Assembly (NCBI GenBank): GCA_017502845.1
Contig: JAFVUE010000003.1
Location: 52,025-116,024, forward strand
DNA length: 64,000 nucleotides
From: Clostridia bacterium
GTDB lineage: Bacteria; Bacillota; Clostridia; UMGS1810
Reading direction: 5' to 3'
In this document: positions 3,614 through 63,067 of the stretch, in pieces
Layout: each line of letters starts with the position of its first letter
How positions within the stretch are numbered: position 1 is the first letter of the stretch
Program-made: the position numbers and the translations under genes
The notes under the pieces: model-generated
Databases searched by the model: none
Told to the model about the DNA's origin: nothing
The model's input: the letters and a program-made list of their open reading frames with translations, nothing else

Positions 3614-3654
3614 AATTATATCCTCCATTCTGCTTTTATAGCAGTATAATTACA

Positions 3655-11912: not shown

Positions 11913-11956
11913 CGTCATCAACCTTTCCGAATTGATTAATTACCATAATAAATCTG

Positions 11957-23392: not shown

Positions 23393-24048
23393 CGTCATCT
23401 TTTCCTTTCTAAATTTTTTGTCTTTTTTCTGCATACAGTGGCGAAATCCTGAATGCACCGATTCTCTGTTCGTACCAAACAGAGCACGGGATGAGCCAAT
23501 ACAAAAGTATCACTCGATTATACAGCACACAAATTCCGCATATGCCATCCGCACACATCATTTCAAAAAAGGACATACGTGGATTTAATACACCGAACAG
23601 TTTACCGCATAACTTTTGCACTACATACACAAGTACCCTATATACCCAATATATCGGAAAGAGGAAGACTTTGTTGTCTTATCCGATACACTCATCTGCA
23701 TACAAGTGCAGTGTTTTTTGAAATTTAAGTTTTTCTGTTTTCGATATGTACGGGTTAAGTACATATACGAACTTTTGGTTTCGGGCGGCGAAATGCCCTA
23801 TACCGAACACATATAAAGTCAGATTCAGTATATGTGAACTTTTCGGGATACATCTGCCATGCAACGCTATATGACGGAGAGTCTGCCCCATCGGGAGAAC
23901 GGGCATATTTCCGTTTTTTGTACGGTGCAAAAACAAATATATCGCCTTTTATATCTCAACCGCCTGACACAGTGCTATCGGGAGTAAACAAAGTGTTTTA
24001 GCGGAGGATATCAAAAGTAAATAAAAAATACAACGTGCGAACATCATC

Positions 24049-24431: not shown

Positions 24432-25997
24432 TTATTTAGCCATGAATCTGTCGTATGCTGTCTGATAAATAGCAATCATCTCGTCAATACCACGGTTCCT
24501 GAGTTCAGCCATGTGTTTGCCATAGTTGGAGATGGGCTCTGTTCCCATTACCATCTTTGTGAACACTTCGTTTTCATATGTTGTAATTGCACCCTCGATT
24601 TCAGAGAGTTTTGCTTTCTCGTCAGCTGTGAGAGGCCACTCAAGTGTCATAAGTGATCTGTCGCCTTCGTTCCATACGATTGAAGCTTCCTTCTGCTGAG
24701 GTGTACCATACTGTACTGCTGCAAATGCATCAGCAGCCATAATCTTCTGGGGAGCACCTGAAGATGTGTTAGCATAGAGTCCCATTGCCTGGTTACGTGA
24801 TTTGCCATCGGGGTTGTTTGTAACGAAATCTGTGAGTTTTTTCTCACCGTTTTCAACCACATAAGATTTACCCTCAATACCCCAGTTAAGAAGAACTGTT
24901 GCTTCTTCTGTATAGAAGTAGTCCATGTATTTGAATGCTGAGTCAAGATCCTGACATTTTGTTGTAATAACACCGCCTGAATCTGTAGATGTGATTCTGT
25001 CGAAGTCCTGAGGAATGTAAGCTTTGCCGCCTTTTTCAAGTGAAGGCCAGGGAGCAGCGACCAGGTTGTAACCTGGAATAGACTGACCTGCTGCAAGATA
25101 TGTACCCATACCGCTGCCTACCCAACCCATACAAGCACCGGATGTATCATTTGACATATAAGCATCTGCAGTTGTTTTATCAAGTGCAGCGAACTCGGAG
25201 TCGATAAGACCCTCCTTATACCATTTGTTCATTTCAGTAACAAATGCTTTGTATTCGGGCTGCATAAAGCCGTAAACAACTTTGCCGTTCTTTACATAGA
25301 TACCGTTTCTTGTACCGAAAGCACCTGCAAAGTTCTTAAATCCGGGGGACTTTGTAGCAGCCATAGGAATCTCATCTGCTTTGCCGTTGCCGTTGGGGTC
25401 GCCTGTCTTGAATGCTTTAAGAACTGTGTACCACTCATCAATTGTGGTAGGCATCTCAAGGCCGAGTTTGTCGAGCCAGTCCTTACGGATCATAGGACCG
25501 TAGCAGGAGTTGAGTGATGTGTCTTCTTTAACAGTTGCGAAGAAGAGTAATTTGCCGTCTGTTGTACGGATTGTTTTGTCAACATCGGGGTTATCTGCAA
25601 GAATCTTTGAGTAGTTGGGGAGCTTATCCGTTTTGTCGGTGAGATCGAGAATGATACCGTCATTGAGAGCGCCCTCATAACCACCAGTATACTTGCTAGC
25701 CCAATTCCAGTAGATCATATCAGTATAGTCGCCTGAAGCGATCATAATGTTGAAGTTTTCTTCCCAAGCAGCAGATGAAGGATGAACGTATTCAACTTCA
25801 ACGCCAACTGCCTCATGGATTTTCTGTACAGATTCCATTTTGCCGTAGTTGTCGAGTTCACTTGCACCTGCATAGTTACCCATCCAATAAGTGAGGTGTC
25901 CTGTTGCCTGTTGTTTTTTGTCGCCTCCGCAGCCTGCCAGTGAAGAAACTGCAAGGAGTGCAACGATTGCAACACAAATAATTTTTCTGAGTTTCAT
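24432..25997 (-). CDS. Extracellular solute-binding lipoprotein of a carbohydrate ABC importer (large LplA-type SBP)
   Basis: Lipobox LAVSSLAGCGG; ~520-aa SBP downstream of two LplB/LplC-type permeases. Confidence 0.85.
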   Translation of the reverse strand: MKLRKIICVAIVALLAVSSLAGCGGDKKQQATGHLTYWMGNYAGASELDNYGKMESVQKIHEAVGVEVEYVHPSSAAWEENFNIMIASGDYTDMIYWNWASKYTGGYEGALNDGIILDLTDKTDKLPNYSKILADNPDVDKTIRTTDGKLLFFATVKEDTSLNSCYGPMIRKDWLDKLGLEMPTTIDEWYTVLKAFKTGDPNGNGKADEIPMAATKSPGFKNFAGAFGTRNGIYVKNGKVVYGFMQPEYKAFVTEMNKWYKEGLIDSEFAALDKTTADAYMSNDTSGACMGWVGSGMGTYLAAGQSIPGYNLVAAPWPSLEKGGKAYIPQDFDRITSTDSGGVITTKCQDLDSAFKYMDYFYTEEATVLLNWGIEGKSYVVENGEKKLTDFVTNNPDGKSRNQAMGLYANTSSGAPQKIMAADAFAAVQYGTPQQKEASIVWNEGDRSLMTLEWPLTADEKAKLSEIEGAITTYENEVFTKMVMGTEPISNYGKHMAELRNRGIDEMIAIYQTAYDRFMAK

Positions 25998-31337: not shown

Positions 31338-33836
31338 TTATTCAATAACATCAACGATAGGAGCAAGCGTTGCCCAATCCCATACGAATACTTTTTCGAT
31401 ATCTGCCATATCGAATGCAAATGCTTTGTAAGCAGATTCGCTTGTTACGTCTTCGTATTTCTGGATTTCAACTGCACCTGCAGCTGTGCGAGCAACTACT
31501 GCGATATCCATTACTTCGCTCTCTGCAAGACCGAGGTTTGCAGGAACGATAGCGAGTGATGCACCACTTGCTGTGATTGCAGCATTTACAACTGCTTCTG
31601 TAGGAGCATCTGCAAATGAACCAATCTCAGCGAGGTATACGTTATCGAAGCCCCATGTTACCTGATGGTTAGCACCTGTAAAGGGATCAATTATACCATT
31701 GTATGTTCTGGGCGCACCTATAGCAGCATACTCCAAGCTTGTGATAGTGTCAACTGTTTTGTCTGCTTTCTGGAAGATATAACCACTCTGAACAAACTCA
31801 CCATCAAAGTAGATATAAGCTGTGTTGCTTTCTATATCAAGGATTGCCTTGTAATTGTGCCAATCATAGAAATCAGCATCGATAACAGCTTTCTTTGTAG
31901 TACCGTCGAGGTTTCGTGTCTGTGCCTGAAGTTCCTGACCGTAACGGGGGATACCGAACAATGAAACCTGCTCTCTGAATGTAGAACCGTCAGTGTATGT
32001 ACCTCTAACAAAGATGTTCATAAACTGACCTTCAGCAGTACCTGTGAAGTAAGAATATGTTGTCTGATCTTCGGGTTTGCCTTCAACTCTCATATCAGCG
32101 CTGAACTCAACAGCTCCGAGACCGGATGCTGTACTGGGAGCGTTCATTGCACCACCGGCTTCTGTGTTTGTTACAGCCATATATTTGCCTGTGTTACCAC
32201 CTGCAGTTTTGTACTCAACATAAGCACTTTCGCTGTAATCATAATGCTTGAGCTCCTCAGCAACATCGTCTTCAAAGCTATCATTTGTGAGAACTTCTAC
32301 TTCGCCTGCAGCTTCAAGACCGAAGATGAAGTATTCGTCAGAAACGAGTTCGTCACCTTCATATACTGCGACATCGCCATTAGCATCAACGATTTCAAAT
32401 CTGATTGAGTTGTAACCTGCTGCCAGAGGAGCATTATAGTTGTAAGCGCCATCTACGAGTGTGATAGGTGTCTTAACGCCATTTACATTAGCAACTGCTT
32501 TGCAACCTGCAGGGATGTTTGCTGCATTTACAGCAATCTGCATCTTTGTACCTGCGGGGAGAGTTGTCTCTGCGATAGCATTTGTTGCAAAAATAGCAGG
32601 CTCTGTGGGAGCAAAATCGTCATATACATCGGCCATAAAGTTGTCAACTGATGTGTATGTTCTAACTTTTCTAGGGTTGTAAGCTGTAGTCTTACCAACG
32701 CTCATGTTTTCGATAGAAGTAACTACAGCAGGAACCCATTTGTTCTTATCGGGATCACCGTCAGCTCTTGTAAGCTGGAAGCCGGCAATACAACCTGAAC
32801 CAACATAGATATCGTTGATATAACCGTATATTTTGTTGTTGGGCATATCGAAGATAACGCTGTAGTTGTTCCAGTCATCGTTGTAGTTATCAACAGTGAA
32901 TTTTACAGGAGTACCATCTGCAGCATAAGCAGTAAATGTGGGTTTACCTGTGTTTGTTGCGATTTCCCAGTAGTTAAGAGATCTTCTGTTCACCTCTGCT
33001 GTGTCGCCATCGTTATCAACGTCATAAGTATCAACGGATCTTGTGTAAGAACCTAAGATATTACCGTTTCTTGTTGTTGCAACGCCTGCATCACCAATAG
33101 CCATTGCTTTGAAACCGTCAGCTGTGCCTGCATCAATTGTGTTTACAACTGCGCCTGTATCATCAACGATTTCAGCATAGTCAGCACGCCAGTCAACGCT
33201 GAGCTTTACGATACCTGTGTAGCCACCCAAATTAGTACAAAATTCTGTGTTAGCACCTGCCTTCTTTGTGTAACCTTCAGCGGAGTTGGGGTCAGCTATC
33301 GCACCACCCCAGCCGATAAGCTGAACGTGAGTGTTTGTGCCTTCTGTAACTACATTAACATCGCGGGGAATCACACCGGGTGCATCATACCATGTGTTCT
33401 TCATACCTACGTCGTTGTAGCCGAATTTGTTACCAAGTTCGCCCGTAGCGTCGGGTTCGAATGTGGTGTCGATCACGTGCTGACCTGCACCGAGGTAAGA
33501 AAGACCGAATACTTTGATTGTTGCTGTCTGAGCAACAACTGTGTCGCCGTTCTTTACTGCAACGGAGATGTTGTTGTCACCTGCAGGAACTGTTACTGCA
33601 TAGTAACCGTCTGCTTTGGTAAGAGGAGCTGCTACACCATTGATTGTAGCAACTACTGTGTTACCCTCTGCAACATCACCTGTGTTTACGATGATCTTGG
33701 AACCAGCGGGAAGCTGTGCAAGATATTCACCGAAAGTGATAGTTGCGGGTGCAGCTGCTTCGTCAGCGAAAGCAACTGTTACCATACTGCTCATAACGAG
33801 TAATGCGCAGAGCAGCATTGATAAAATTTTCTTCAT
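31338..33836 (-). CDS. Secreted (Ig-like + LamG-like)x2 protein, paralog of 21152-23392 and 36483-39191
   Basis: Signal peptide MKKILSMLLCALLVMSSMVTVAFA. Cores DWNNYSVIFDMPNNKIYGYINDIYVGSG and DWHNYKAILDIESNTAYIYFDGEFVQSG. C-terminus ...EKVFVWDWATLAPIVDVIE. The start is moved to ATG 33836, because the ATG at 33845 sits 1 nt from the GAAAGGG RBS. Confidence 0.75.
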   Translation of the reverse strand: MKKILSMLLCALLVMSSMVTVAFADEAAAPATITFGEYLAQLPAGSKIIVNTGDVAEGNTVVATINGVAAPLTKADGYYAVTVPAGDNNISVAVKNGDTVVAQTATIKVFGLSYLGAGQHVIDTTFEPDATGELGNKFGYNDVGMKNTWYDAPGVIPRDVNVVTEGTNTHVQLIGWGGAIADPNSAEGYTKKAGANTEFCTNLGGYTGIVKLSVDWRADYAEIVDDTGAVVNTIDAGTADGFKAMAIGDAGVATTRNGNILGSYTRSVDTYDVDNDGDTAEVNRRSLNYWEIATNTGKPTFTAYAADGTPVKFTVDNYNDDWNNYSVIFDMPNNKIYGYINDIYVGSGCIAGFQLTRADGDPDKNKWVPAVVTSIENMSVGKTTAYNPRKVRTYTSVDNFMADVYDDFAPTEPAIFATNAIAETTLPAGTKMQIAVNAANIPAGCKAVANVNGVKTPITLVDGAYNYNAPLAAGYNSIRFEIVDANGDVAVYEGDELVSDEYFIFGLEAAGEVEVLTNDSFEDDVAEELKHYDYSESAYVEYKTAGGNTGKYMAVTNTEAGGAMNAPSTASGLGAVEFSADMRVEGKPEDQTTYSYFTGTAEGQFMNIFVRGTYTDGSTFREQVSLFGIPRYGQELQAQTRNLDGTTKKAVIDADFYDWHNYKAILDIESNTAYIYFDGEFVQSGYIFQKADKTVDTITSLEYAAIGAPRTYNGIIDPFTGANHQVTWGFDNVYLAEIGSFADAPTEAVVNAAITASGASLAIVPANLGLAESEVMDIAVVARTAAGAVEIQKYEDVTSESAYKAFAFDMADIEKVFVWDWATLAPIVDVIE

Positions 33837-33906
33837 TTTTATCATACCCTTTCTAAAAATAATTACTTAAGGTAATGGGCACATACGGACACAATACCAT
33901 ACTAAA

Positions 33907-34421: not shown

Positions 34422-34823
34422 TTACAGTTTTGATAACTGCTCTTTACATACTGCGCAGATACGCTTGTTCTTGAAATCCATAAGATCTGCAGAACTGCCA
34501 CAGAACACACATTTCTCCTCGTACTCCTTGAGCACGATGGCATCGCCCTCAACAAATATCTGCATAGCCGCTTTAAGTGGCAGAGAGAGCATCTTGCGAA
34601 GTTCCATAGGGATAACAGTTCTGCCAAGAGCATCAAGGGGTCTTACAATGCTTGTGGTTGCCTGACCCATAGCGGGAACATATTTCTTACAGACAATCTT
34701 ATTATCTGTAACATAAATCTCCATCTTGTCGCCCTCTTCGATACCAAGAGTTCGGCGAATCTCAATGGGAAATACAAGACGACCGAGGTCGTCAATTCTT
34801 CTGATAATGCCTGTTGCTTTCAT
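34422..34823 (-). CDS. AbrB/SpoVT-family DNA-binding protein with two tandem swapped-hairpin domains and a C-terminal CxxC...CxxC zinc-ribbon-like tail
   Basis: Domain 1 is TGIIRRIDDLGRLVFPIEIRRTLGIEEGDKMEIYV. Domain 2 is TSIVRPLDALGRTVIPMELRKMLSLPLKAAMQIFV. The tail is CVFCGSSADLMDFKNKRICAVC. Confidence 0.8.
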   Translation of the reverse strand: MKATGIIRRIDDLGRLVFPIEIRRTLGIEEGDKMEIYVTDNKIVCKKYVPAMGQATTSIVRPLDALGRTVIPMELRKMLSLPLKAAMQIFVEGDAIVLKEYEEKCVFCGSSADLMDFKNKRICAVCKEQLSKL

Positions 34824-36482: not shown

Positions 36483-39191
36483 TTACTCAATAACTGCGAT
36501 ATTCTTCAATGTATCCCAGTTCCATACGAACACTTTGTCTATGCCTTCCATTTCAAAGCCGAATGCTTTGTAAGAAGATTCCGCTGTTACATCTTCGTAT
36601 TTCTGCATCTCGATTTCACCGGATGCTGCACGTGCGATAACAGCGATTGTCATAACCGCATCTTCAGCAAGACCGAGGTTTGCAGGAATGATACCGAGTG
36701 TAGCACCTTCTGCTGTGATAGCAGCATTGATAATTGCTTCTGTGGGAGCATCGCCAACGCCATAACTTACCACTTTCCAGTTATCAAAGTTTGCTGTTAT
36801 ACGTTTGCTGTATGTCCAGTTACCTGTTGCCGCCTCTGTATCAGCTGCATACTGACGTGCGTTGATTACGTGAGGCCAGAGGAACTCTGTAACATCTGTT
36901 GTAGATGTTTTGTAAGTACCTAATGAACCCTGAGCAACGAGAACATCGTCTACAAGGAGATATATCTCATCTTCTACAATATCAATAATTGCACGGTAGT
37001 TATGCCACTCACCGGGGTTAACATCAACTACTGTGGGAACAGCAGTTGTGCCATTAAATGTGTTAGCATAAACTTTACCCTGGTTATTTATACCGAAGAG
37101 TGTTTTTGTACCTCTGAGACCTGAATAGTCGCTGTCCCATACGAGCTGAGTATCCATAATGTTCCACTCTGCCCATCTCCACTCATTCTTAATGTCTTCA
37201 GAAGATGTGATAACTGTTGTCTTTTCAAGTACACCTGTTGTAACAGTTGTAGTTTCAATCTTTTCTGCACGGTAATCAATGCTCATATCAAAGAAACGAT
37301 CAACAGTTGCGCTTCCTGTGTCGCCACTGCGGTAACTTGATACGAATACAGGACCTGCACCGTCTTTTCTTGCAGCAGAGGGGTTTGTTGTGTATACAGG
37401 GTCTGCATATTTACTACCCCATGATGTGATTGTGAAGTACTTATCATCTGTACCTGCTACATTAACTTTGTTTGAAGCACCTGCTACTGATTTATATGCT
37501 GCATAATCAGTATGTGTAAAGTATTCTGTTGAACCGATACCTACAGCAGCAAAGAGTGCATTATACCCTCTCAATGTGTCTCCGGAAGATGCGCTGTATT
37601 CAGCATATGTGGGGAAATCAGTTGCAGCATTGAAATCATGTCTTGTTGTTACATCGCCCTCGGGAGCAAATGCATAATATGCCCACTCATCTGATTTAAC
37701 TTCATTGCCGTCGCTGTCTACAACAATATTGCCGTCAGCATCTACCATAGCAACATAAATGCTTGTGTAACCTGCCGCCAGAGGAGTATTGTAATTGTAT
37801 GTAACGCCTGTAGCAGTAAGGTCGCATCTTACGCCATTTACAAATGCAGCAACTGCACCGCCTGCAGGAATATTTGCTGCAACTGCAGAAAGCTGAAGTT
37901 TTGAACCGGCGGGAAGAACTTCTGCTGTAGTACCGTTAGTTACTTCAACAGTGGGCTCAGTAGAAGCAAAGCCGTTTGCATAAACATCTACAATAAAGTC
38001 ATCTGCAGAAGCGTATGCAACAACATCTGTGCTGTTGTAAGGTCTTAAGTTTTTAATATAAGGCCATGTTGCTGCTCTGGGTTCAACGAGAAGTGTCTGA
38101 CCTTCTTTTTCATGACCTGTTGCATATTTAACACCTGCAAGGTGGCCTGAAGCAACAAAGATATCATTGATATAACCGTAAACTGTATCGTTGGGGATAT
38201 CAATTATAACTTTGTAATTGTTCCATCCGGCATTGAAGTTGTCAATAAGAACTGTTTTTGCAGAACCGTCTGCATTGTATGCAGTAAACTGGGGTTTACC
38301 CTGTGTAAGGTTAAGTGTCCAGTATGAGAATCCAACTCTTTCTTCGCCTGTATCGTTACCGTTATCATAGTCAGTCGGATCGGAGAAAAGATACTGAACT
38401 GTAAGCACCTGACAGTCAGCGAGAGTTGCAGTGCCATTATCAGCAGTTCTTGCTGCTTTGATCTCATCAGGAGTTGTCATAGTAAATGTCTGTGTTGTAG
38501 CACCTGTTTCGGGATCAATAACATCTACCTTATCAAAACGATAGTCAACGCTGATTTCAGCAACATTGTTAAGTTTTCCGGAGTCTACTGCTGATGCGAG
38601 CTGTGTACCGCCGCCGTTTACTACTTTTGTGTAGCCCTCGCCTGTATGGGGGTCAGAAGCAGCAGTACCCCATGTGAAGATGGAAAGGTACTGATTACCT
38701 TCTTCGTTTGCAATAGCAACTCTGGGAGATGTAATATTGAGGTTGCCATCGTACCACGCTTTGTTCATACCAAAATCGTAGTAACCTAATTTGTTACCAA
38801 CTTCTCCTGTGGTATCCGTTTCCCATGTTGTTTCCTGTGTGCGTTCTGCTTCGCCCATATAAGAAACGCCAAACACTTTTATTGTTTCTGTCTGTGCTAC
38901 AACTGCATCGCCGTTCTTAACTGCAACGGAGATAGAGTTATCACCTGCAGGAACTGTTACTGCATAGTAACCGTCTGTGAGAACAAGCGTTCTCTCAGAG
39001 CCGTTGATTGTAGCAACAACTGTATTACCCTCGGCAACATCGCCTGTGTTTACGATGATCTTGGAACCAGCGGGAAGTTTTGCAAGATACTCACCGAAAG
39101 TAATAACTTCAGGTGTATCAGCAAAAGCAACAGTTGCCATGGAACTCATTATGAGTAATGAGCAGAGTAATAATGACAATACTTTTTTCAT
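36483..39191 (-). CDS. Secreted (Ig-like + LamG-like)x2 protein, largest paralog of the cassette family
   Basis: Signal peptide MKKVLSLLLCSLLIMSSMATVAFA. Cores GWNNYKVIIDIPNDTVYGYINDIFVASG and GEWHNYRAIIDIVEDEIYLLVDDVLVAQGS. C-terminus ...DKVFVWNWDTLKNIAVIE. Confidence 0.75.
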   Translation of the reverse strand: MKKVLSLLLCSLLIMSSMATVAFADTPEVITFGEYLAKLPAGSKIIVNTGDVAEGNTVVATINGSERTLVLTDGYYAVTVPAGDNSISVAVKNGDAVVAQTETIKVFGVSYMGEAERTQETTWETDTTGEVGNKLGYYDFGMNKAWYDGNLNITSPRVAIANEEGNQYLSIFTWGTAASDPHTGEGYTKVVNGGGTQLASAVDSGKLNNVAEISVDYRFDKVDVIDPETGATTQTFTMTTPDEIKAARTADNGTATLADCQVLTVQYLFSDPTDYDNGNDTGEERVGFSYWTLNLTQGKPQFTAYNADGSAKTVLIDNFNAGWNNYKVIIDIPNDTVYGYINDIFVASGHLAGVKYATGHEKEGQTLLVEPRAATWPYIKNLRPYNSTDVVAYASADDFIVDVYANGFASTEPTVEVTNGTTAEVLPAGSKLQLSAVAANIPAGGAVAAFVNGVRCDLTATGVTYNYNTPLAAGYTSIYVAMVDADGNIVVDSDGNEVKSDEWAYYAFAPEGDVTTRHDFNAATDFPTYAEYSASSGDTLRGYNALFAAVGIGSTEYFTHTDYAAYKSVAGASNKVNVAGTDDKYFTITSWGSKYADPVYTTNPSAARKDGAGPVFVSSYRSGDTGSATVDRFFDMSIDYRAEKIETTTVTTGVLEKTTVITSSEDIKNEWRWAEWNIMDTQLVWDSDYSGLRGTKTLFGINNQGKVYANTFNGTTAVPTVVDVNPGEWHNYRAIIDIVEDEIYLLVDDVLVAQGSLGTYKTSTTDVTEFLWPHVINARQYAADTEAATGNWTYSKRITANFDNWKVVSYGVGDAPTEAIINAAITAEGATLGIIPANLGLAEDAVMTIAVIARAASGEIEMQKYEDVTAESSYKAFGFEMEGIDKVFVWNWDTLKNIAVIE

Positions 39192-40283: not shown

Positions 40284-40943
40284 TTATTCTTCTGTTGTTT
40301 CTGCAGCTTCTTCAGCGGCAGGTGCTTCTGCAGCAGCTTCCTCAACTACGGGAGCTTCTTCAGCAGCGGGTGCAACTTCTTCTGCGGGTGCAGCTTCAGC
40401 AGCGGGTGCAGCTTCAGCAGTGGGAGCATCAATCTTAATATCAGCGGGTTCTACGCCGTTATCGATAAGTGCCTGTAATGTACGTACCAACTTGGATACG
40501 GGTGCGTTCAAGCTGCCCATGATCTTAGCGATAAGAACTTCTCTGGAGGGAGTATTAGCCAGAGTTTTAATCTCGTCTAAGCTAATTACTTTACCATCTA
40601 AGAAACCTGCTTTGATCTCAACCTTGTCGTTACCTTTTGCAAAATCAGCAATGATTTTTGCAGGAGCAACGGGGTCAGAATCACTGATAGCCAATGATGT
40701 GGGGCCGTGAAGCGCGCCGTCCAGCTCGTCAAGACCAACTTCCTTAGCAGCAAATCTTGTGAGAGTGTTCTTTACAACTGTGTATTCAACACCTGCCTCA
40801 CGGAACTTCCTGCGGAGTTCTGTATCTTCACCAACTGTCAAGCCACGGTAGTCAACAAGTACACCGGCCTGTGCTGATTTCAATTTCTCGATCAGTTCGG
40901 CAACTGTAACCTTTTTCTGTTCTAAAACTTTTGCGCTTGGCAT
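40284..40943 (-). CDS. rplJ: 50S ribosomal protein L10 with a ~54-aa acidic Ala/Glu/Pro-rich C-terminal extension
   Basis: MPSAKVLEQKKVTVAELIEKLKSAQAGVLVDYRGLTVGEDTELRRKFREAGVEYTVVKNTL.... The start is moved to ATG 40943 (GGAGGTG RBS). The tail is PTAEAAPAAEAAPAEEVAPAAEEAPVVEEAAAEAPAAEEAAETTEE. Confidence 0.9.
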   Translation of the reverse strand: MPSAKVLEQKKVTVAELIEKLKSAQAGVLVDYRGLTVGEDTELRRKFREAGVEYTVVKNTLTRFAAKEVGLDELDGALHGPTSLAISDSDPVAPAKIIADFAKGNDKVEIKAGFLDGKVISLDEIKTLANTPSREVLIAKIMGSLNAPVSKLVRTLQALIDNGVEPADIKIDAPTAEAAPAAEAAPAEEVAPAAEEAPVVEEAAAEAPAAEEAAETTEE

Positions 40944-41151
40944 GTAATCACCTCCTAAAAATTCATGAATGGTGAGAAACCTCACCGGGCGAACAAGCAT
41001 ATCCGCCTCATCCAAAGAAACGAAAAAAGGGTTCCAATGCGAAAGACACACAGGAACCCATAAAAAATCATACTAAAAAATATGGTTAAGTTCCTCGGCA
41101 GGATTTACTTTAAGTATTACTTAACACCTGCTGTCTTTGGACAACGTATAT
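40944..41151 (-). promoter_or_regulatory. rplJ 5' leader (ribosomal protein L10 leader-like) containing an intrinsic attenuator
   Basis: A ~200-nt untranslated leader lies between the internal promoter and rplJ. It contains the hairpin gggttcc...ggaaccc plus TTTTTT at 41033-41069. Assignment to the L10-leader family rests on position and architecture only. Confidence 0.5.
41033..41069 (-). terminator. Leader attenuator (intrinsic terminator) upstream of rplJ
   Basis: Minus strand reads GGGTTCC tgtgtgtctttcgcatt GGAACCC TTTTTT. Confidence 0.55.
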
Positions 41152-41180
41152 ACTGTATCATAAATTTTTTTGCTTGTCAA
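41152..41180 (-). promoter_or_regulatory. Candidate internal promoter for rplJ-rplL (TTGACA-17-TACAGT)
   Basis: Minus-strand reading; -35 at 41175-41180, -10 at 41152-41157, just downstream of the rplA stop. Confidence 0.45.
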
Positions 41181-45131: not shown

Positions 45132-45165
45132 AAAAAATCCAAGGTGCAATTACCTTGGATTTTTT
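45132..45165. terminator. Bidirectional terminator between convergent citrate synthase and the paralog operon
   Basis: aaaaaatccaaggt gcaatt accttggattttt. Confidence 0.8.
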
Positions 45166-45170
45166 GCGTC

Positions 45171-46127
45171 TTATACTATTTCATCTATAAAGAAAAATTC
45201 ATAGCCGTGTTCGTGGAAGAACTTTGCCATAGAGAGAATTTTTTCGGGTGTTTCAGGTTGGTAGTTCACATACTCTTTATTGAAATACTGCTCGTGTGTA
45301 CCTACACAAACGTAGTCATACTGCAACTGCTGTTCATATCTTTCCTGAAGATTTTCCACGGGAACGAGATTTAAGCAGATACCTGTGGAGAATGTTTTGA
45401 ATATCATACCTGTCTCTTCATCCTTAACAAACTCTAATGTTCCTTTCTGTTTGTTTTTAATGTCGGTGGGGATGTGGTTATAAGCACAGAGCATGGTCTG
45501 TGGATAGATTCCGCCAACGAGAGTGTCATAAAATCTTGTCTCGGGCTGTCTGTTCTCCAAAAATACTTTTCTCCAGCTTTCGTGATGAATCACCGTTGTT
45601 TCGGGATCGTAATCATAAGCATCGCCCGACGAACAGTTGAGGATTCTTACTCCGCAATCGTAAAGGGCTTTGACTCCTGCTTTGCTTACGGGCATCCAAT
45701 GAGCCGTAATACCCTCGGTAAATGATTTTTCTCCTGCAAATCGGATAATCTCGTTCTTAACCGCCATATAGGATTCTTTCATGGCATCATATGTAATATT
45801 AATGTGGAGAAAATCGGGATATTCCCGCTTACTGTGCCATGCAAGTTTCAGCCAGTCGGAATTTTCCTCCCATTCCGCTTTATATGTATCGGGCATATCG
45901 GCAAGGGTAAACATACTGTCGTCATCGCCGAAGTCGAAAACACCGTCTCTGTAGGATTCCTCTGTCTGATAGAAGAGGTTGAGCTGAACTTTCATACCGT
46001 ATTTGTCGTGTGCCTCTTTGAGCATAGCAAAATACGGCTCGTCAAAGATAGATGCAGGTTTGTTTTTCGCAAGTTTGCGCAATGTCCAGATATGGTCGTC
46101 TATATAGAAATATATTTTCTTTGCCAT
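45171..46127 (-). CDS. Uncharacterised cytoplasmic protein, tandem paralog 4 of 4 in transcription order (HEQYF family)
   Basis: 318 aa with YIDDHIW, IFDEPYFAMLKEAHDKYG, NSDWLKLAWHS, EIIRFAGE, AHW and THEQYFNKEYVNYQPE; no signal peptide. Confidence 0.8.
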   Translation of the reverse strand: MAKKIYFYIDDHIWTLRKLAKNKPASIFDEPYFAMLKEAHDKYGMKVQLNLFYQTEESYRDGVFDFGDDDSMFTLADMPDTYKAEWEENSDWLKLAWHSKREYPDFLHINITYDAMKESYMAVKNEIIRFAGEKSFTEGITAHWMPVSKAGVKALYDCGVRILNCSSGDAYDYDPETTVIHHESWRKVFLENRQPETRFYDTLVGGIYPQTMLCAYNHIPTDIKNKQKGTLEFVKDEETGMIFKTFSTGICLNLVPVENLQERYEQQLQYDYVCVGTHEQYFNKEYVNYQPETPEKILSMAKFFHEHGYEFFFIDEIV

Positions 46128-46139
46128 AATGATTTCTCC

Positions 46140-47099
46140 CTATTTTATAAGTTCATCCACAAAGAAAAATTCATATCCGTTATCGTGGAAGAATTTTGCC
46201 ATTGAATGGAATTTCTCTGCAGTGTCGGGCTGATAATTGCAATACTCCTCATTGAAATACTGCTCGTGTGAGCCGACGCACACATAATCGTACTTGAGTT
46301 GACTTTCGTACACCTGCGGGAGAGTTTCAAGGGGAGAAAGATTCAGGATGATTTCAGGGCAGAACTCCTTAAATTTCATTCCCGTCTCTTCATCAGTCAT
46401 ACAATCAAATGTGCCCAGCTGTTTGTTTCCGATTTCGGAGGGCAGATGGTTTTGTCCGCAGAACATTGTCTGGGGGTAGATTCCTCCGACAATCGTGTCA
46501 TAGCATCGTGTTTCGGGTTGTCTGTTTTTAAGGAAAACCTCTCGCCACGCTTCGTGGTGGATAACAGTTGTATCGGGATCATAATCGTAGGCATCACCTT
46601 TTGATGCGTTGAGGATTCGAACTCCGCAATCGTAAAGTGCCTTAACACCATCTTTACTTACGGGAAGCCAATGTGCAGTTATTCCCTCTGTTAATGATTT
46701 CTCCCCTGCAAATCGGATGATTTCGTTCTTAACCTTCATATACGATTCCTTCATCTCATCATAAGTAACGTTGAGGTAAAGGAAAGGCGGGTACTCCTTC
46801 GTGGAATGCCACGCAAGTTTAAGCCAGTCGGAATTTGCTTCCCATTCGCTCTTATATGTATCGGGCACTTCGGCAAGGGTAAACATACTGTCGTCATCGC
46901 CGAAATCAAAAACTCCGTCTCTGTAAGATTCCTCTGTCTGATAGAAAAGATTTAACTGGACTTTCATACCGTATTTGTCGTGTGCCTCTTTGAGCATAGC
47001 AAAATACGGCTCGTCAAAGATAGATGCAGGTTTGTTTTTCGCAAGTTTGCGGAGTGTCCAGATATGGTCATCAACATAGAAATATATTTTCTTAGACAT
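46140..47099 (-). CDS. Uncharacterised cytoplasmic protein, tandem paralog 3 of 4 (HEQYF family)
   Basis: 319 aa. The N-terminal ~75 aa are almost identical to 45171-46127, the rest is diverged; 12-nt gap to the next gene. Confidence 0.8.
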   Translation of the reverse strand: MSKKIYFYVDDHIWTLRKLAKNKPASIFDEPYFAMLKEAHDKYGMKVQLNLFYQTEESYRDGVFDFGDDDSMFTLAEVPDTYKSEWEANSDWLKLAWHSTKEYPPFLYLNVTYDEMKESYMKVKNEIIRFAGEKSLTEGITAHWLPVSKDGVKALYDCGVRILNASKGDAYDYDPDTTVIHHEAWREVFLKNRQPETRCYDTIVGGIYPQTMFCGQNHLPSEIGNKQLGTFDCMTDEETGMKFKEFCPEIILNLSPLETLPQVYESQLKYDYVCVGSHEQYFNEEYCNYQPDTAEKFHSMAKFFHDNGYEFFFVDELIK

Positions 47100-47114
47100 A
47101 GTTTTTTCTCCTTA

Positions 47115-48044
47115 TTATATTATATCCTCTGCGAAGATAAATTCATAGCCGTGTTCTGTGAAATATTTCGCCATCAATGCCATCTTTTCTTTAGTATCGG
47201 GTTGATAGTAATCATAGAAATCGTGGAAATATTGCTCGTGGGTAATCATACCAACAAGTTCGTCATCCTTGATTTTCTCAAACAGACTTTCGAGATGATC
47301 CAACTTAAAACTGTTGAGGATAACGCCCGAACAGAATGTCTTGAATATCATACCTGTATCTTCGTCCTCCACATAATTGAATGTTCCTTTTATCTTGCTG
47401 TCATAAATATCGGAGGGGATATGGTTCCAACTACAAAGGTTATATCCCTCGGATTCGAATGTGATTTCGTTGGTGCTTACTTTTGATTCAGGTTTTCTGT
47501 TGCTCATAAGTGCTTCCTTATAAGAGGAGTGGAGTTCGCCTGTAAATTCCTCATAATCGCAAGCAGTGCCGTGGGTTGAATCAAGAACTCTTACTCCGCA
47601 ATCGTAGAGTGCCTGAACACCCTCTTTGCTTACGGGGAGCCAGTGAGCACAGGTTGCATAAGTAAATGTCTTCTCCCCTGCGAAGCGGAATACTTCACGC
47701 TCAATATTTTTGAATGTTTCATGCATCTCATCATAGTCAATATTCACGTGTGGAACATTGGGGAATTCTTTCTTCGCGTGGTAGGCAAGCTTCAGCCAAT
47801 TGCTGTTTTCTTCCCATTCCGCCTTGTATGTATCGGGAACTTCAGACAAATCGAACTTGCCCATATCATAGCTTTCGTCAAGTTCATAGAAAAGGTTGAG
47901 CTGGAGTTTTAAGCCGTATTTGTCGTGAATATCCCTGAGCATCCCGAAGAACGGAATATCAAATATGGAATCGGGTTTTCTTTCCGCCAACTGCTTGAAT
48001 GCGAAAATATTATCGTCGATGTAGAAAAAGAATTTTTTTGACAT
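47115..48044 (-). CDS. Uncharacterised cytoplasmic protein, tandem paralog 2 of 4 (HEQYF family)
   Basis: 309 aa with YIDDNIF, NSNWLKLAYHA, EVFRFAGE, AHW and THEQYFHDFYDYYQPD. Confidence 0.8.
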   Translation of the reverse strand: MSKKFFFYIDDNIFAFKQLAERKPDSIFDIPFFGMLRDIHDKYGLKLQLNLFYELDESYDMGKFDLSEVPDTYKAEWEENSNWLKLAYHAKKEFPNVPHVNIDYDEMHETFKNIEREVFRFAGEKTFTYATCAHWLPVSKEGVQALYDCGVRVLDSTHGTACDYEEFTGELHSSYKEALMSNRKPESKVSTNEITFESEGYNLCSWNHIPSDIYDSKIKGTFNYVEDEDTGMIFKTFCSGVILNSFKLDHLESLFEKIKDDELVGMITHEQYFHDFYDYYQPDTKEKMALMAKYFTEHGYEFIFAEDII

Positions 48045-48061
48045 ATCGTTATCTCCTTATA

Positions 48062-48988
48062 TCACAGAATCTCGTCAAGGAAGAAAAATTCAAAGCCGTG
48101 CTCTGTGAAGTATTTTGCCATAAGGTTATATTTTTCGGCAGTGTCGGGCTGATAGTTTACATAAAAATCGTGGTAGTACTGTTCGTGTGTGAAGATGCAG
48201 ACATATTCCTGATCCTTCTGCTTTTCAAAGCGCTCGGGGAGACTCTCAAGTGTTGAACTGTTGAGGCAGATGCCTGTACTGTAGCACTTGAATTTCATTC
48301 CCGTTTCCTCGTCAGTGATATAATCAAAAGTTCCGTATATTCTCTTTTCATCTTCGGATGAGATATTGTTATATGAACACAGAGAGGTAAGGTAATAATC
48401 TCTGTTTATAAATTTTTTATAGCACTTTGATTCGGGTTTTCTGTTGTCGAGAAGCAATTCCACACAATCGGGTGTGAGGTCGGAGGTTTCGGGATCGTAT
48501 TCAAACGGATCTCCATAAGAAGCATAAAGCAACGGTACTCCGCAGTCATAGAGTGCCTGAACTCCATCTTTGCTGACAGGAACCCAGTGAGCACAGGTAA
48601 CGTAAGTAAATGACTTTTCCCCTGCAAAGCGGAATACTTCGCGTTCGATATTTTTGAATGTATTATACATATCGTCATAGTCGATATTAAGATGTGGGAA
48701 ATTGGGGAATTCCTTCTTCGCGTGGTAGGCAAGCTTCAACCAGTCGGAGTTTGCTTCCCATTCTGATTTATATGTATCGGGGACTTCGGCTAAAGTGAAT
48801 GTTCCCTCTCCGTATGACTCGTCTGTCTGATAAAACAAATTGAGCTGAACCTTTAATCCATAGTTGTCGTGGGCACCTTTGAGCATACCAAAGAAAGGCA
48901 CATCAAATATTGATTCGGGCTTTCTCTCCGCCAACTGACGGAACGCCCAGATATTGTCATCGATGAAAAAATATATTTTTTTTGACAT
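48062..48988 (-). CDS. Uncharacterised cytoplasmic protein, tandem paralog 1 of 4 (HEQYF family)
   Basis: MSKKIYFFIDDNIW.... The start is moved to ATG 48988 (GAAGGAGTG RBS). Confidence 0.8.
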   Translation of the reverse strand: MSKKIYFFIDDNIWAFRQLAERKPESIFDVPFFGMLKGAHDNYGLKVQLNLFYQTDESYGEGTFTLAEVPDTYKSEWEANSDWLKLAYHAKKEFPNFPHLNIDYDDMYNTFKNIEREVFRFAGEKSFTYVTCAHWVPVSKDGVQALYDCGVPLLYASYGDPFEYDPETSDLTPDCVELLLDNRKPESKCYKKFINRDYYLTSLCSYNNISSEDEKRIYGTFDYITDEETGMKFKCYSTGICLNSSTLESLPERFEKQKDQEYVCIFTHEQYYHDFYVNYQPDTAEKYNLMAKYFTEHGFEFFFLDEIL

Positions 48989-49009: not shown

Positions 49010-49037
49010 ATTATAACAACATCGTACGGAAAGTCAA
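49010..49037 (-). promoter_or_regulatory. Strong promoter of the four-paralog operon (TTGACT-16-TGtTATAAT)
   Basis: Minus-strand reading; -35 at 49032-49037, -10 at 49010-49015 with an extended TG. It lies between the msmX terminator and the first paralog. Confidence 0.6.
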
Positions 49038-49133: not shown

Positions 49134-49173
49134 ACAAAAAACAGTGCGCCTTGCCATATGCAAAGCGCACTGT
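49134..49173 (-). terminator. Rho-independent terminator after the ABC ATPase gene
   Basis: Stem acagtgcgc / gcgcactgt followed by TTTTTT on the minus strand. Confidence 0.8.
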
Positions 49174-49221: not shown

Positions 49222-50334
49222 TTAGTTAAGAATTGCCAACTCTGTCTCTTTATCGAAGAGGTGAATCTTGTTGGAATCAAATACAATCTTGATATCGTCG
49301 CCGTGTTTAGCAGTACTTCTGGGGTTAACTCTTGCTGTGAAAGCAACCTCACCAATCTTGAGATAGAGGTATGTCTCAGCACCCATCATTTCAGTAAGTT
49401 CAACATAAGCGTCGATCTGATTTTCTTCGTTGGCTGCAAGGAAAGCTTCCTCGTCGTGGATATCCTCAGGACGAACGCCGAGAACAACTGTCTTGCCAAT
49501 CACACCTGCTTCTCTTACTTTAGCAGCTTTACCCTCGGGGAGTTTTACGCTGAAGCCGTTACCTTTAAGGTAGATGTCTTTGTTACCTTCTTCAACACGA
49601 GCGTCAACGAAGTTCATCTGGGGGCTGCCGATGAATCCTGCAACAAACATGTTAACAGGGTTGGAGTAAAGGTTAGCAGGGGAATCGATCTGCTGTACAA
49701 AACCGTCTTTCATAACTATGATTCTGGAACCCATTGTCATAGCTTCTGTCTGGTCATGTGTTACATAGATAAATGTAGTCTTCAATCTCTTGTGGAGTTT
49801 ACCGATCTCTGTTCTCATCTGAACACGGAGTTTAGCGTCCAGGTTGGAGAGAGGTTCGTCCATAAGGAATACTTTTGGCTCACGAACGATAGCACGACCG
49901 AGAGCAACACGCTGTCTCTGACCACCGGAAAGCGCCTTGGGCTTTCTGTCGAGAAGGTGCTCGATGTCGAGAATCTTTGCTGCTTCATTAACTCTTCTTC
50001 TGATCTCATCCTTGGGAGTCTTTCTGAGTTTGAGACCGAATGCCATATTTTCAAATACAGTCATATGAGGATAAAGAGCATAGTTCTGGAAAACCATCGC
50101 AATGTCTCTGTCCTTGGGTGCTTTGTCATTAACGAGTTCGCCGTCAATGTAGAGTTCACCTTCTGAAATTTCTTCAAGACCGGCAATCATTCTGAGAGTA
50201 GTTGACTTACCGCAACCGGAAGGACCAACCAGAACGATAAACTCCTTATCCTGAATATCCAGTGTGAAATCTGATACTGCAGTAACGCCACCTGCGTATC
50301 TTTTGTAAATGTGGTCTAACTTCAAACCTGCCAT
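49222..50334 (-). CDS. msmX: Sugar ABC transporter ATP-binding protein (MsmX/MsmK/MalK-type, stand-alone)
   Basis: Walker A GPSGCGKST, signature LSGGQRQR, Walker B FLMDEPLSNLD and a C-terminal TOBE-like region; no permease or SBP genes adjacent. Confidence 0.9.
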   Translation of the reverse strand: MAGLKLDHIYKRYAGGVTAVSDFTLDIQDKEFIVLVGPSGCGKSTTLRMIAGLEEISEGELYIDGELVNDKAPKDRDIAMVFQNYALYPHMTVFENMAFGLKLRKTPKDEIRRRVNEAAKILDIEHLLDRKPKALSGGQRQRVALGRAIVREPKVFLMDEPLSNLDAKLRVQMRTEIGKLHKRLKTTFIYVTHDQTEAMTMGSRIIVMKDGFVQQIDSPANLYSNPVNMFVAGFIGSPQMNFVDARVEEGNKDIYLKGNGFSVKLPEGKAAKVREAGVIGKTVVLGVRPEDIHDEEAFLAANEENQIDAYVELTEMMGAETYLYLKIGEVAFTARVNPRSTAKHGDDIKIVFDSNKIHLFDKETELAILN

Positions 50335-52816: not shown

Positions 52817-53416
52817 TCAGTACTGACTGAGGATTGCCTTGATTGATTCGTTTCCGTAAAGACCGGTGAACGTTACTATGTACCAGTTGCCCTGAATCTT
52901 CGCAACTACTATCTCTCCGCTTTGTGTTTCCTCGGAAACATCGCCTTTCACAGTAACCCCAACCTCAAAAACATGGAGTTCGCTCACATAATTTGCAGGG
53001 TACTCGCAGTTGTCATAAAGATACTTGTTGATTTTCTCAACATCTTCTGGGTTGTATTCCGTAATCGACTTCTGCTCTACCTCAATCTTAAGATTATTTC
53101 CGTATGTACCCTCAAGAGAAGACCTGGTCCTCATGGCATCTTCGTTAAATTTATCAATGGCATCGGCTTCGTCTGCAAACAGTTCTTCCAAAACGGCCTG
53201 TTCAAAGAGAAAAGGATGAATGGACACCCTGAACATAGTTTCGCCGTCTGCATTCTCAAGAGAATCGTAATATCTTGTTACCGTTCCCCATGAATTTTCG
53301 ACTGTTGCTTCCTCTGCAGGTTCAACTGCAGGAGTTACTGCGGGTTCTTTAGTGCCACAAGCACAAAGGGATAAAAGCATAAGTGCCGATAAAACAAATG
53401 ACAATACTTTTTTCAT
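52817..53416 (-). CDS. Lipoprotein, function unknown; paralog of 53980-54531
   Basis: Lipobox LLSLCACG. Shared block YNPEDVEKINKYLYDNCEYPANYVSEL versus YNKDDAKKINIYLKEAHGYPANYVTEV. Confidence 0.7.
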   Translation of the reverse strand: MKKVLSFVLSALMLLSLCACGTKEPAVTPAVEPAEEATVENSWGTVTRYYDSLENADGETMFRVSIHPFLFEQAVLEELFADEADAIDKFNEDAMRTRSSLEGTYGNNLKIEVEQKSITEYNPEDVEKINKYLYDNCEYPANYVSELHVFEVGVTVKGDVSEETQSGEIVVAKIQGNWYIVTFTGLYGNESIKAILSQY

Positions 53417-53438
53417 GATGAATTCCTCACTGTAAAAA

Positions 53439-53957
53439 TCAATTCACAAACAAATGTTTTCTCTTGGAGAAATATATATGCGACAGGCACACTATACTGC
53501 TCGTTACGGCTATGTTTGCAAGGATTCCGGGAACTACGGCAAACACCTTGCCCACAGCAAAACCACAACAAAGGTTATACACAACACTTGGGATAACAGG
53601 AGCAACATAAAGAACGATTATCAGCAAAGGCACATTCTTCTTCATACCTTTTAACTGCCACCATACATATCCCTTGAAAAGCGCAAACAGCAACACCACT
53701 ATGCCATACACAACATCGAAGATTTTAACCATCGGGTAAGTAGCGTATATAGCAGAGGGATCCAACCCTTCGGCAGCATAGATCAAACCCGTCAAAAACT
53801 GAAGGCCTTTGGATATGTCATCAAGTGTGCCGAAAATAAGGATTATAAGCAAAAGCTTGTACCATTTCATTCCTATGCCGGACTCAGCTCTTCCTGCCCC
53901 GCCAAGACCGTTTCTTCCATCAACACTTAAAACTCTTTCTTTCTTTTCGTTTTTCAT
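53439..53957 (-). CDS. Integral membrane protein (about 4 TM), function unknown
   Basis: Hydrophobic segments WYKLLLIILIFGTL, VVYGIVVLLFALF, PLLIIVLYVAPVIPSVV and ILANIAVTSSIVCL; GAGGA RBS 5 nt before ATG 53957. Confidence 0.6.
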   Translation of the reverse strand: MKNEKKERVLSVDGRNGLGGAGRAESGIGMKWYKLLLIILIFGTLDDISKGLQFLTGLIYAAEGLDPSAIYATYPMVKIFDVVYGIVVLLFALFKGYVWWQLKGMKKNVPLLIIVLYVAPVIPSVVYNLCCGFAVGKVFAVVPGILANIAVTSSIVCLSHIYFSKRKHLFVN

Positions 53958-53979
53958 ATTTGTCCTCGTTTATTTTTTA

Positions 53980-54531
53980 TTAGTGCTTTTTAATAATTCT
54001 TTCAAGCGCTTCCTTGTCGGGAACACCGGGAAGATTGTTCACATACCACTTGCCGTCAATCTTTGACACAATATATTCTTCTGTGTGGGAACGCCGACCG
54101 CGGCTTCCGGTAATTGTGATTTTTGCAGTTACGACTACAACTTCTGTTACATAATTTGCCGGATAGCCGTGCGCTTCTTTAAGATATATGTTAATCTTTT
54201 TCGCGTCATCTTTATTGTATCTGGTGGAGTTCTTTTTCTCTACGCTGACACTCAAATCCTCACCGAGGTCTTCCTCATAGCTGTCGCATAAGTCCTTTGC
54301 AGTTCTGTCGTACGCGGTATGTATATCGTTTTCGTTCAGGTAAACACTGTCGTCCAGTCGGTCTTCAAGGCGCTGTGGGTCTTCATTAACCTCGAATAAT
54401 GCTTCTCCGTCGCGGTCGATAATGGCCTGATAGTATTTTTTGATTGCACCGACAGCACCATTGTTAAAAGAACATGAACAAAGAGAAACAGCCAGAACAA
54501 TCACAAGCATAAGCGAAATTATTCTTTTCAT
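53980..54531 (-). CDS. Lipoprotein, function unknown; paralog of 52817-53416
   Basis: Lipobox AVSLCSCS; see 52817-53416. Confidence 0.7.
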   Translation of the reverse strand: MKRIISLMLVIVLAVSLCSCSFNNGAVGAIKKYYQAIIDRDGEALFEVNEDPQRLEDRLDDSVYLNENDIHTAYDRTAKDLCDSYEEDLGEDLSVSVEKKNSTRYNKDDAKKINIYLKEAHGYPANYVTEVVVVTAKITITGSRGRRSHTEEYIVSKIDGKWYVNNLPGVPDKEALERIIKKH

Positions 54532-62707: not shown

Positions 62708-63056
62708 GGGGGCGTAAAGGTTTCGACGGGGTATCTGAAACATTGGGTGCGGGCAGCGGCGGAGACCGCTTTACTAACTCCAAAACTTAAATATAAAAGC
62801 TAACAAAAATTTAGCATACGCTGCCTAATTTAGAGGCGGCCGTCCTCCCTGTGAGTACCGCGGCATAGGCAAGGGCGTCAGAGAGCGGTGAACGTGAACG
62901 ACATTCTTTAGTCCCGGAAGTCGGCACGGAGTAGGGACTGACCGGATTGATATGTTTTGTCTGTGTTCAGTCAATTCGGTTTTTTAACACAGACTACGCC
63001 CGTAGTACCCGGTGTGGACGGTGTTTCGGACGGGAGTTCGACTCTCCCCGCCTCCA
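62708..63056 (+). ncRNA. ssrA: tmRNA (SsrA), tag peptide ANKNLAYAA
   Basis: The 5' end GGGGGCGTAAAGGTTTCGACGGGG pairs with the 3' end ...GGACGGGAGTTCGACTCTCCCCGCCTCCA (G3-U wobble in the acceptor stem; CCA not encoded). The resume frame is GCT AAC AAA AAT TTA GCA TAC GCT GCC TAA. Confidence 0.95.
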
Positions 63057-63067
63057 TACACAAAGAA

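Follow-up and report, generated by a model that had tools for sequence, protein, structure and literature searches.

We examined a 64,000-nucleotide stretch of DNA from a Clostridia bacterium (GenBank assembly GCA_017502845.1, contig JAFVUE010000003.1, positions 52,025 to 116,024 of the forward strand), called the window below, in which four tandem paralogous genes occupy positions 45171 to 48988 and a fifth, longer relative lies 42 kb away. An initial annotation of the window, made from its letters, had described the five genes as a family of cytoplasmic enzymes and had placed the fifth copy in an operon with heparinase-like lyase genes. All five open reading frames (ORFs) were present, and when we searched every six-frame ORF of the window with a profile of the family, we found exactly five copies. 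The genes and the predicted transcription signals around the array are as follows, with positions counted from the first letter of the window.

45171-46127, minus strand: tandem paralog 1, 318 amino acids, last gene of the operon (ORF, family profile and codon comparison)
46140-47099, minus strand: tandem paralog 2, 319 amino acids (ORF and family profile)
47115-48044, minus strand: tandem paralog 3, 309 amino acids (ORF and family profile), the copy modeled with AlphaFold
48062-48988, minus strand: tandem paralog 4, 308 amino acids, first gene of the operon (465 bits against the family profile)
49010-49037, minus strand: predicted sigma-70-type promoter of the four-gene operon, TTGACT-16 nucleotides-TATAAT with an extended −10 TG
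45132-45165, minus strand: terminator-like hairpin 3' of the last tandem gene, a 14-pair stem followed by a T-run
About 49136-49173, minus strand: GC-rich hairpin and T-run after msmX, read by eye as acagtgcgc, a 15-nucleotide loop, gcgcactgt and TTTTT
2480-3613 (ORF 2480-3628), minus strand: fifth copy, 377 amino acids from the ATG at 3613, an N-terminal β-sandwich plus a barrel

Judged by their predicted signals, the four tandem genes look like one self-contained transcription unit. They share one strand, are separated by spacers of 12, 15 and 17 nucleotides with a GGAG ribosome-binding site in each, have a promoter upstream and a terminator downstream, and are set apart from msmX by the hairpin that, as we read it by eye, follows that gene. 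This last hairpin was not flagged by the terminator scanner because its loop exceeds the scanner's limit of 8. The near-consensus promoter described in the initial annotation was borne out by our prediction, matching at 11 of 12 positions and ranking as the top promoter-like site in the 5.8 kb scanned; promoter-like sites as such showed no excess there (15, against a mean of 13.1 in shuffled sequence). Paralog 4 probably starts at the ATG at 48988, which has GGAG upstream; a GTG three codons upstream is less likely because the placement of the GGAG box favors the ATG. The idea that a riboswitch or leader RNA precedes the operon was rejected, since Rfam gave no match in this region and the leader spans only some 22 nucleotides. 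The array lies between msmX and a convergent citrate synthase gene and adjoins ribosomal protein genes. The identical four-gene array, in the same msmX/citrate synthase setting, occurs on another metagenomic contig (L096), and a more distant relative (L097) has a single copy only.

The fifth copy probably starts at the ATG at 3613, since its close homologs have 376 to 378 amino acids and share a consensus that begins MRDYF. This copy carries about 100 extra N-terminal residues and is without an insertion of about 55 residues found in the tandem type. Pairwise amino acid identity among the four tandem copies ranged from 50 to 80%: copies 1 and 2 were 80% identical, copies 3 and 4 were 64% identical, and identity between the two pairs was 50 to 58%. 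The fifth copy was 34 to 35% identical to each of them. Synonymous divergence (dS) among the tandem copies was at least 1.6 or saturated, and the ratio of nonsynonymous to synonymous divergence (dN/dS) was 0.08 to 0.17 (0.083 for paralogs 1 and 2). Because synonymous divergence is high or saturated and dN/dS is low, these codon comparisons mark the tandem copies as old duplicates kept by purifying selection. Their differences clustered in residues 159 to 262, where mean pairwise identity was 41 to 49%, compared with 62 to 73% in the core, and this region includes the insertion that the fifth-copy branch lacks. The catalytic-looking residues were retained in all five copies. Since the divergence falls mostly in a lineage-specific insertion, the tandem copies probably take different but related substrates.

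We then looked for relatives and for any existing name. Pfam, NCBIfam and PADLOC gave no match to the catalytic domain in any of the five window proteins, and phmmer and hmmsearch of PDB sequences with three queries (one paralog and two family profiles) returned nothing significant. A word-indexed search found 117 tandem-type and at least 987 fifth-copy-type relatives, every one of them unnamed or labeled "hypothetical protein," in agreement with the initial view of the family as uncharacterized. We found no matching characterized family or pathway in the literature. A role in defense or in a phage found no support in the PADLOC scan. Searching 1.84 billion cluster representatives exhaustively with a family profile gave 1,797 clusters (at 50% identity) at E values up to 1e-3, a number that is a minimum, and 1,329 at E values up to 1e-10. 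Most of these were of the fifth-copy type, with either about 260 amino acids (the barrel alone) or about 370 (the barrel plus the N-terminal domain). Among species-representative genomes, at least 221 stretches encode a relative, a lower bound obtained with two peptide patterns; the best 80 of the 221 all came from metagenome-assembled genomes of uncultured Clostridia, Oscillospiraceae or "Eubacteriales" from ruminant and human guts. Going by these searches, the family is large, unnamed and restricted to uncultured gut Clostridia (Oscillospiraceae and relatives).

Some members are fused to other domains, namely, SGNH/GDSL esterases, an α/β-hydrolase, GNAT, a BNR sialidase-like domain, SMP-30/gluconolactonase and HAD. 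The GNAT acetyltransferase fusions are P0170 and P0212, and a GNAT gene also lies 720 nucleotides upstream of the family gene at one locus (L006). A single protein of 552 amino acids (P0219) is fused to a C-5 cytosine DNA methylase; this is a probable artifact of merged gene calls.

To describe the fold, we modeled paralog 3 and the fifth copy with AlphaFold2, obtaining predicted local distance difference test scores of 95.8 and 95.5 and predicted template-modeling (TM) scores of 0.93 and 0.91, respectively. Each model was used in an independent Foldseek search of the PDB, and the top 50 matches were considered. The best match of paralog 3 was the GH57 4-α-glucanotransferase 1k1x (E value, 2.6e-5; TM score, 0.52 of query length). 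It was accompanied by ArnD (8t0j; E value, 6.5e-5), by CE4/NodB proteins that included HP0310, the putative deacetylase 3rxz of M. smegmatis, Vibrio chitooligosaccharide deacetylases, BA3943 and insect chitin deacetylases, and by a GH57 amylopullulanase and GH38 mannosidase II. CE4/NodB structures dominated the search with the fifth copy; TM scores were 0.62 of target length for ArnD and 0.58 to 0.60 for Bc1960. Two-domain glycosidases were matched through the sandwich-plus-barrel layout, and generic TIM barrels were among the matches too. The NodB-type distorted β/α barrel reached a Foldseek probability of 1.00 for many CE4 structures and for ArnD. Matches to CE4 and ArnD had TM scores of 0.41 to 0.62 of target length and E values of 6.5e-5 to 1e-3, which denotes likeness at the level of the fold only. 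The models thus assign the catalytic domain to the "glycoside hydrolase/deacetylase" superfamily, as a distorted β/α barrel whose shape comes closest to NodB/CE4 and ArnD. Because TM scores do not exceed 0.62 and identity is near 10%, the models place the relationship to NodB/CE4 at the superfamily level. The N-terminal domain of the fifth copy is all-β in its model; among 116 family representatives, this domain gave weak matches to Glucodextran_B in 16 and to BiPBP_C in 7, and it is of a type common in carbohydrate enzymes. We found no N-terminal hydrophobic segment in any of the five copies, as the initial annotation had said of signal peptides, and barrel strand 1 of the tandem type starts at residue 4. 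The family is predicted to be cytoplasmic because there is no signal sequence.

The motifs listed in the initial annotation (DD, SIFDxP, QLN, WLxLxxH, RFAGE, HW and HEQY...Y..Y.P) were all present. In an alignment of 102 members from both branches, most of them were conserved in at least 90% of sequences. Numbered as in paralog 3, the residues conserved at this level are D10, D11, S26, F28, K37, H40, N50, E76, W83, H89, E117, R120-F-A-G123, H134, G150, D227, N244, H269, E270, Y272, Y277 and Y280. In the model, D10 and D11 stand at the C-terminal end of strand 1, where the DD pair had been expected; N50 lies within strand 2, H89 ends strand 3, H134 follows the short strand 4, and H269 ends strand 7, with E270 next. 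D10, D11, N50, H89, R120, H134, D227, N244, H269 and E270 all lie at or within three residues of C-terminal strand ends, which is where barrel enzymes place the active site.

We compared this pattern with the motifs that define CE4 enzymes, MT1 to MT5, which comprise a tandem Asp, H-(S/T)-x-x-H, RPPYG and an Asp-His relay (PMC10967932). MT1 supplies the catalytic base and a metal ligand, MT3 holds the Arg that pairs the catalytic Asp as well as a hydroxylatable Pro, and MT5 reads I-I-L-M-H (PMC10967932). MT1 is present in the family: D10 and D11 were 97 to 98% conserved, and the DD dipeptide occurred in all 354 full-length members. H-A-x-x-(E/D/N) was found in 264 of 289 members, with the spacing of the MT2 H-x3-H; the position four residues after H89 was E in 171 of the 289, N in 50 and D in 43, with no His among the common residues. 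For MT3, a marginal HMMER match to the chitin deacetylase 8he1 (E value, 1.5) aligned RFAGE...HWG...G-x-x-GL with the MT3 region in the correct order, so that T-x-H-W-G occupies the RPPYG position in this marginal alignment; the invariant R120 of RFAG lies 14 residues upstream. The invariant H269 at the end of strand 7 is an MT5-like His, and D227 (91% conserved) is a candidate MT4-type partner in the model. We propose from the models that the family folds and works in a NodB-like way yet falls outside CE4 as that family is defined by sequence.

To see what the family genes are found with, we assembled about 75 nonredundant loci and clustered the 517 neighbors lying within four genes; the resulting counts ignore shared ancestry. 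A GFO/IDH/MocA oxidoreductase gene was present at 12 of the 75 loci, always on the same strand and mostly adjacent, and its product matched the IolG, levoglucosan dehydrogenase and glycoside 3-dehydrogenase models, all below cutoff. Other recurrent neighbors were FAD_oxidored (six loci), MsmX (six), a ROK regulator (five), a distant NagB-like protein (five), an AraC regulator (four or five), a xylose isomerase-like TIM barrel (four), a PIG-L deacetylase (four), a GtaA-like six-hairpin protein (four) and a CBM9-like protein (three). Single tandem-type genes often adjoin a divergent gene for a 279-amino-acid AraC regulator, and at one locus the family gene follows a two-component/AraC regulator, an ABC importer and a GH109-like oxidoreductase. 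Four genomes (L023, L024, L028 and L031; at about 6.8 to 13.8 kb within each locus) share a conserved operon made up of ROK, the family gene, an IolG-like GFO gene, a BshB1-like PIG-L gene, a distant NagB-like gene (316 amino acids) and a CBM9_2-like gene, together with a gene for a 344-amino-acid protein of no assigned function and accompanied by a divergent FAD_oxidored gene. This operon may encode an undescribed amino-sugar pathway.

We consider the proteins, with considerable confidence, to be enzymes of a new family within the glycoside hydrolase/deacetylase barrel superfamily. Our more specific reading, to which we give a probability of about 0.5, is that they form a new family of cytoplasmic NodB-fold metal hydrolases that would carry out hydrolytic de-acylation of sugars or amino-sugar derivatives. 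This reading accords with the fold and the pattern of residues, with the absence of a signal peptide, and with the partners related to acetyl and amino sugars. In the mechanism we envisage, a metal-bound water would be held by D11, H89 and the E, D or N four residues further on, and the invariant H134 after strand 4 may add to the metal site. The first Asp of the DD pair (D10) would act as the base, and the invariant His of HEQY after strand 7 (H269) would act as the acid. The substrate would be an acyl group, probably acetyl, or a related amide or ester, on an intracellular sugar, amino sugar or small oligosaccharide. The observations behind this reading are the genes, the operon signals, family size and taxonomy, the fold, and the positions and conservation of residues; from them we infer that the enzymes depend on a metal and hydrolyze their substrate, which class that substrate belongs to, and what the insertion does. 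A more elaborate proposal, which we put forward tentatively, is that these proteins are the first examples of a carbohydrate-active enzyme family in which the NodB-fold barrel binds its metal through Asp-His-(Glu/Asp/Asn) and a further invariant His stands where CE4 enzymes have hydroxyproline. The ROK/family gene/GFO/PIG-L/NagB-like operon would then encode a cytoplasmic pathway for amino sugars or glycosides in gut Oscillospiraceae that has yet to be described, the family protein would catalyze one of its steps, and the tandem copies would have diversified in substrate.

A number of observations weigh against the de-acylase reading. The catalytic domain of the 116 representatives had no Pfam match, and for Polysacc_deac_1 (PF01522) there was none at E values up to 1 in the five window proteins or up to 0.1 in the representatives. 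Structural similarity was remote (TM scores of 0.4 to 0.62, root mean square deviations of 6 to 13 Å, identity of about 10%), and generic TIM barrels (KDO8P synthase, aldolase and allulose epimerase) also appeared lower in the Foldseek lists. Alignment of the family with ArnD by hhalign, ArnD being represented by either a single sequence or a 25-sequence profile, gave a probability of 0.08 to 0.15%, the ArnD profile being shallow (orthologs at least 66% identical); the pairing of the family's IMIHEQ with ArnD YTIHAE had a probability of only 0.08%. In MT2, a pair of metal-binding His residues in CE4, the first His is invariant in the family (H89) and the second is replaced. RPPYG of MT3 is absent, and there is no Pro-Pro. 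That the invariant residues cluster at one active site on one face of the barrel is something we infer from their secondary-structure positions in the model. Many loci offered housekeeping neighbors or synteny only. Finally, the best-conserved operon already encodes a PIG-L N-deacetylase, and the family gene in that operon may do something other than deacetylation.

The GFO/IDH/MocA gene, the most frequent informative neighbor, suggests another role, in which the family would be the partner of that oxidoreductase in oxidative glycoside cleavage or sugar conversion, for example, by converting a keto-sugar intermediate as a metal-dependent lyase, hydratase or isomerase. The nearby xylose isomerase-like barrels and FAD oxidoreductases and the SMP-30/lactonase fusions are consistent with such a role, and the match with the lowest E value for the fifth copy was the C-glycoside deglycosidase 8un2 (E value, 1.3e-5). 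The 8un2 superposition, however, is not credible (TM score, 0.30; root mean square deviation, 23 Å), allulose epimerase-type barrels had lower TM scores (about 0.35) and probabilities than the NodB matches, and 84% of loci have no adjacent GFO gene. Xylose isomerase-like barrels have an E-D-H-E metal pattern, and the order in the family (DD, H, H, D, HE) differs from it. We regard this role as unlikely. Somewhat less likely still is that the proteins are glycoside hydrolases or transglycosylases of the GH57/GH38 type that cleave imported oligosaccharides, an idea that draws on 1k1x as the best match of the tandem-type model, on the other GH57 and GH38 matches, on the conserved carboxylates E76, E117, E124, E270 and D227 as a possible nucleophile and acid/base, and on the β-sandwich-plus-barrel layout of the fifth copy, which resembles that of many glycosidases. 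Against it, Pfam GH57 and GH38 were unmatched at any threshold, and GH57 fell outside the top 50 of the fifth copy, whereas NodB-type matches persisted. GH57 and GH38 strand-1 motifs contain His, but that of the family is DD, as in CE4, and three invariant His residues, taken with the DD pair, look more like a metal site than like the two carboxylates of a glycosidase.

The surroundings of the fifth copy bear on a third possibility, confined to that copy and its closest orthologs, which is that they process the unsaturated oligosaccharides released by heparinase-like lyases, perhaps in place of a missing GH88/GH105 enzyme. The fifth copy is codirectional with a run of lyase and SLH genes and lies 26 nucleotides downstream of its last gene (41 nucleotides if counted from the ATG at 3613). 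At one other locus (L016), a 79% identical ortholog likewise follows genes for an SLH protein, a HepII-like lyase and a Big_5 protein, the lyase being 66% identical to the product of 7968-11921 in the window. As the initial annotation had reported, no GH88/GH105 enzyme was seen: none was matched among the 20 large neighboring ORFs scanned. GH88 and GH105 enzymes are usually about 370 to 400 amino acids long, and none of the unscanned window ORFs of at least 150 amino acids is of that size. But homologs of the window lyases stood beside a family gene at only 1 of about 75 other loci (L016), the tandem copies lie 42 kb away among housekeeping genes with their own promoter and terminator, and the lyase context falls far short of explaining at least 1,797 clusters. 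Moreover, the downstream flank is shared by a 78% identical ortholog (L011) that has no lyase genes, its upstream neighbors being msmX, S21, YqeY and a MazE-like gene. In the window, these four genes are found at 49222-50334 and at about 34.4 to 35.8 kb, and the glycan locus (3655-33845), which encodes an AraC regulator, an ABC importer, SLH proteins and two lyase-like proteins of about 1,300 amino acids with HepII_C and F5-8C domains, sits between the MazE-like gene (34422-34823) and the fifth copy. L011 has the family gene right next to the MazE-like gene, and L016 holds only part of the glycan block. Since the L011 ortholog occupies the same chromosomal site lyase-free, the simplest reading of this synteny is that the lyase/ABC/AraC block is a variable insertion, gained or lost, beside a resident family gene. 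We therefore rejected a lyase partnership as the function of the family as a whole, and with it the link to lyases that had been suggested as a family trait, and we consider its restricted form, for the fifth copy and its closest orthologs, improbable. The associated suggestion of intracellular processing of imported sugars loses its basis in the lyases, but it is plausible on other grounds, namely, the GFO, PIG-L, NagB-like, ROK/AraC, ABC importer and MsmX neighbors and the fusions. A cytoplasmic NodB-fold sugar de-acylase remains the reading that we prefer.

Several other proteins of this part of the window had few or no Pfam matches, and all are encoded on the minus strand. A 521-amino-acid protein (24432-25997), without a Pfam match, is encoded upstream of two ABC permeases and, from its position, is presumably the solute-binding protein. 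The sole match of a 768-amino-acid protein (21152-23458) was a subthreshold one to Polysacc_lyase. Two proteins of 835 and 902 amino acids (31338-33845 and 36483-39191) each had a subthreshold Glucodextran_B match near residues 450 to 490 and no other Pfam match; the idea that they contain hidden family copies was rejected, as the family profile finds five copies only. Elsewhere in the window, three small tandem ORFs of 199, 172 and 183 amino acids lie between Tex and EF-G on the minus strand (52817-54531); the same trio, without a Pfam match, is found in L096, and in L011 their place is taken by a PfkB kinase. We also located a transfer-messenger RNA gene (62708-63059, plus strand) and a ribosomal protein L10 leader (41014-41158, minus strand), into which a mechanically called ORF (40284-41051) overextends.

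Human and ruminant guts hold large numbers of Oscillospiraceae and related uncultured Clostridia, much of whose glycan metabolism is unannotated. The family carries no Pfam, NCBIfam or CAZy-type label. Once its activity was assigned, thousands of entries now listed as "hypothetical proteins" would gain an annotation, and the family might qualify as a new one among the carbohydrate esterases (or another CAZy class), distinguished by an unusual metal site. The operon with GFO, PIG-L and NagB-like genes offers a concrete pathway open to testing. The fold itself belongs to a well-known superfamily, and the chemistry is likely to be conventional.

Among known systems, the YdjC/ChbG proteins belong to the same broad superfamily; they deacetylate imported chitooligosaccharides in the cytoplasm (PMC10967932). 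The initial annotation had guessed at a NodB/YdjC-like barrel. The NodB part of that guess stood, with CE4/NodB, ArnD and GH57 dominating the two Foldseek searches; the YdjC part did not, as no YdjC structure was in the top 50 of either search and there was no Pfam YdjC match. GH57 (represented by the Thermococcus litoralis 4-α-glucanotransferase 1K1X) and GH38 share the seven-stranded barrel superfamily with the family. The match to 1K1X, the top one for the tandem-type model and outside the top 50 for the fifth copy, is limited to the barrel of a 636-amino-acid protein (TM score, 0.28 of target length), the strand-1 motif differs, and there is no Pfam Glyco_hydro_57 match. The best structural neighbors of both models are CE4/NodB proteins (PF01522; NodB1.2 structures 3RXZ and 3QBU) and the deformylase ArnD (8T0J). 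PMC10967932 assigns 3RXZ and 3QBU to the divergent NodB1.2 group and describes ArnD as NodB-like but not part of CE4. The family differs from CE4/NodB in having no detectable sequence homology to it, in having E, D or N in place of the second MT2 His, and in having T-x-H-W-G in place of RPPYG, where a marginal alignment sets an invariant His opposite the hydroxylated Pro. Its invariant RFAG helix end has no counterpart in CE4, and one of its branches carries the insertion of about 55 residues and the other the N-terminal β-sandwich. Most characterized CE4 enzymes are secreted or periplasmic, whereas this family is predicted to be cytoplasmic. What the two have in common is the distorted β/α barrel, the Asp pair of strand 1, the His after strand 3 with a potential ligand four residues on, and a conserved His at the end of strand 7, the putative counterpart of the MT5 His.

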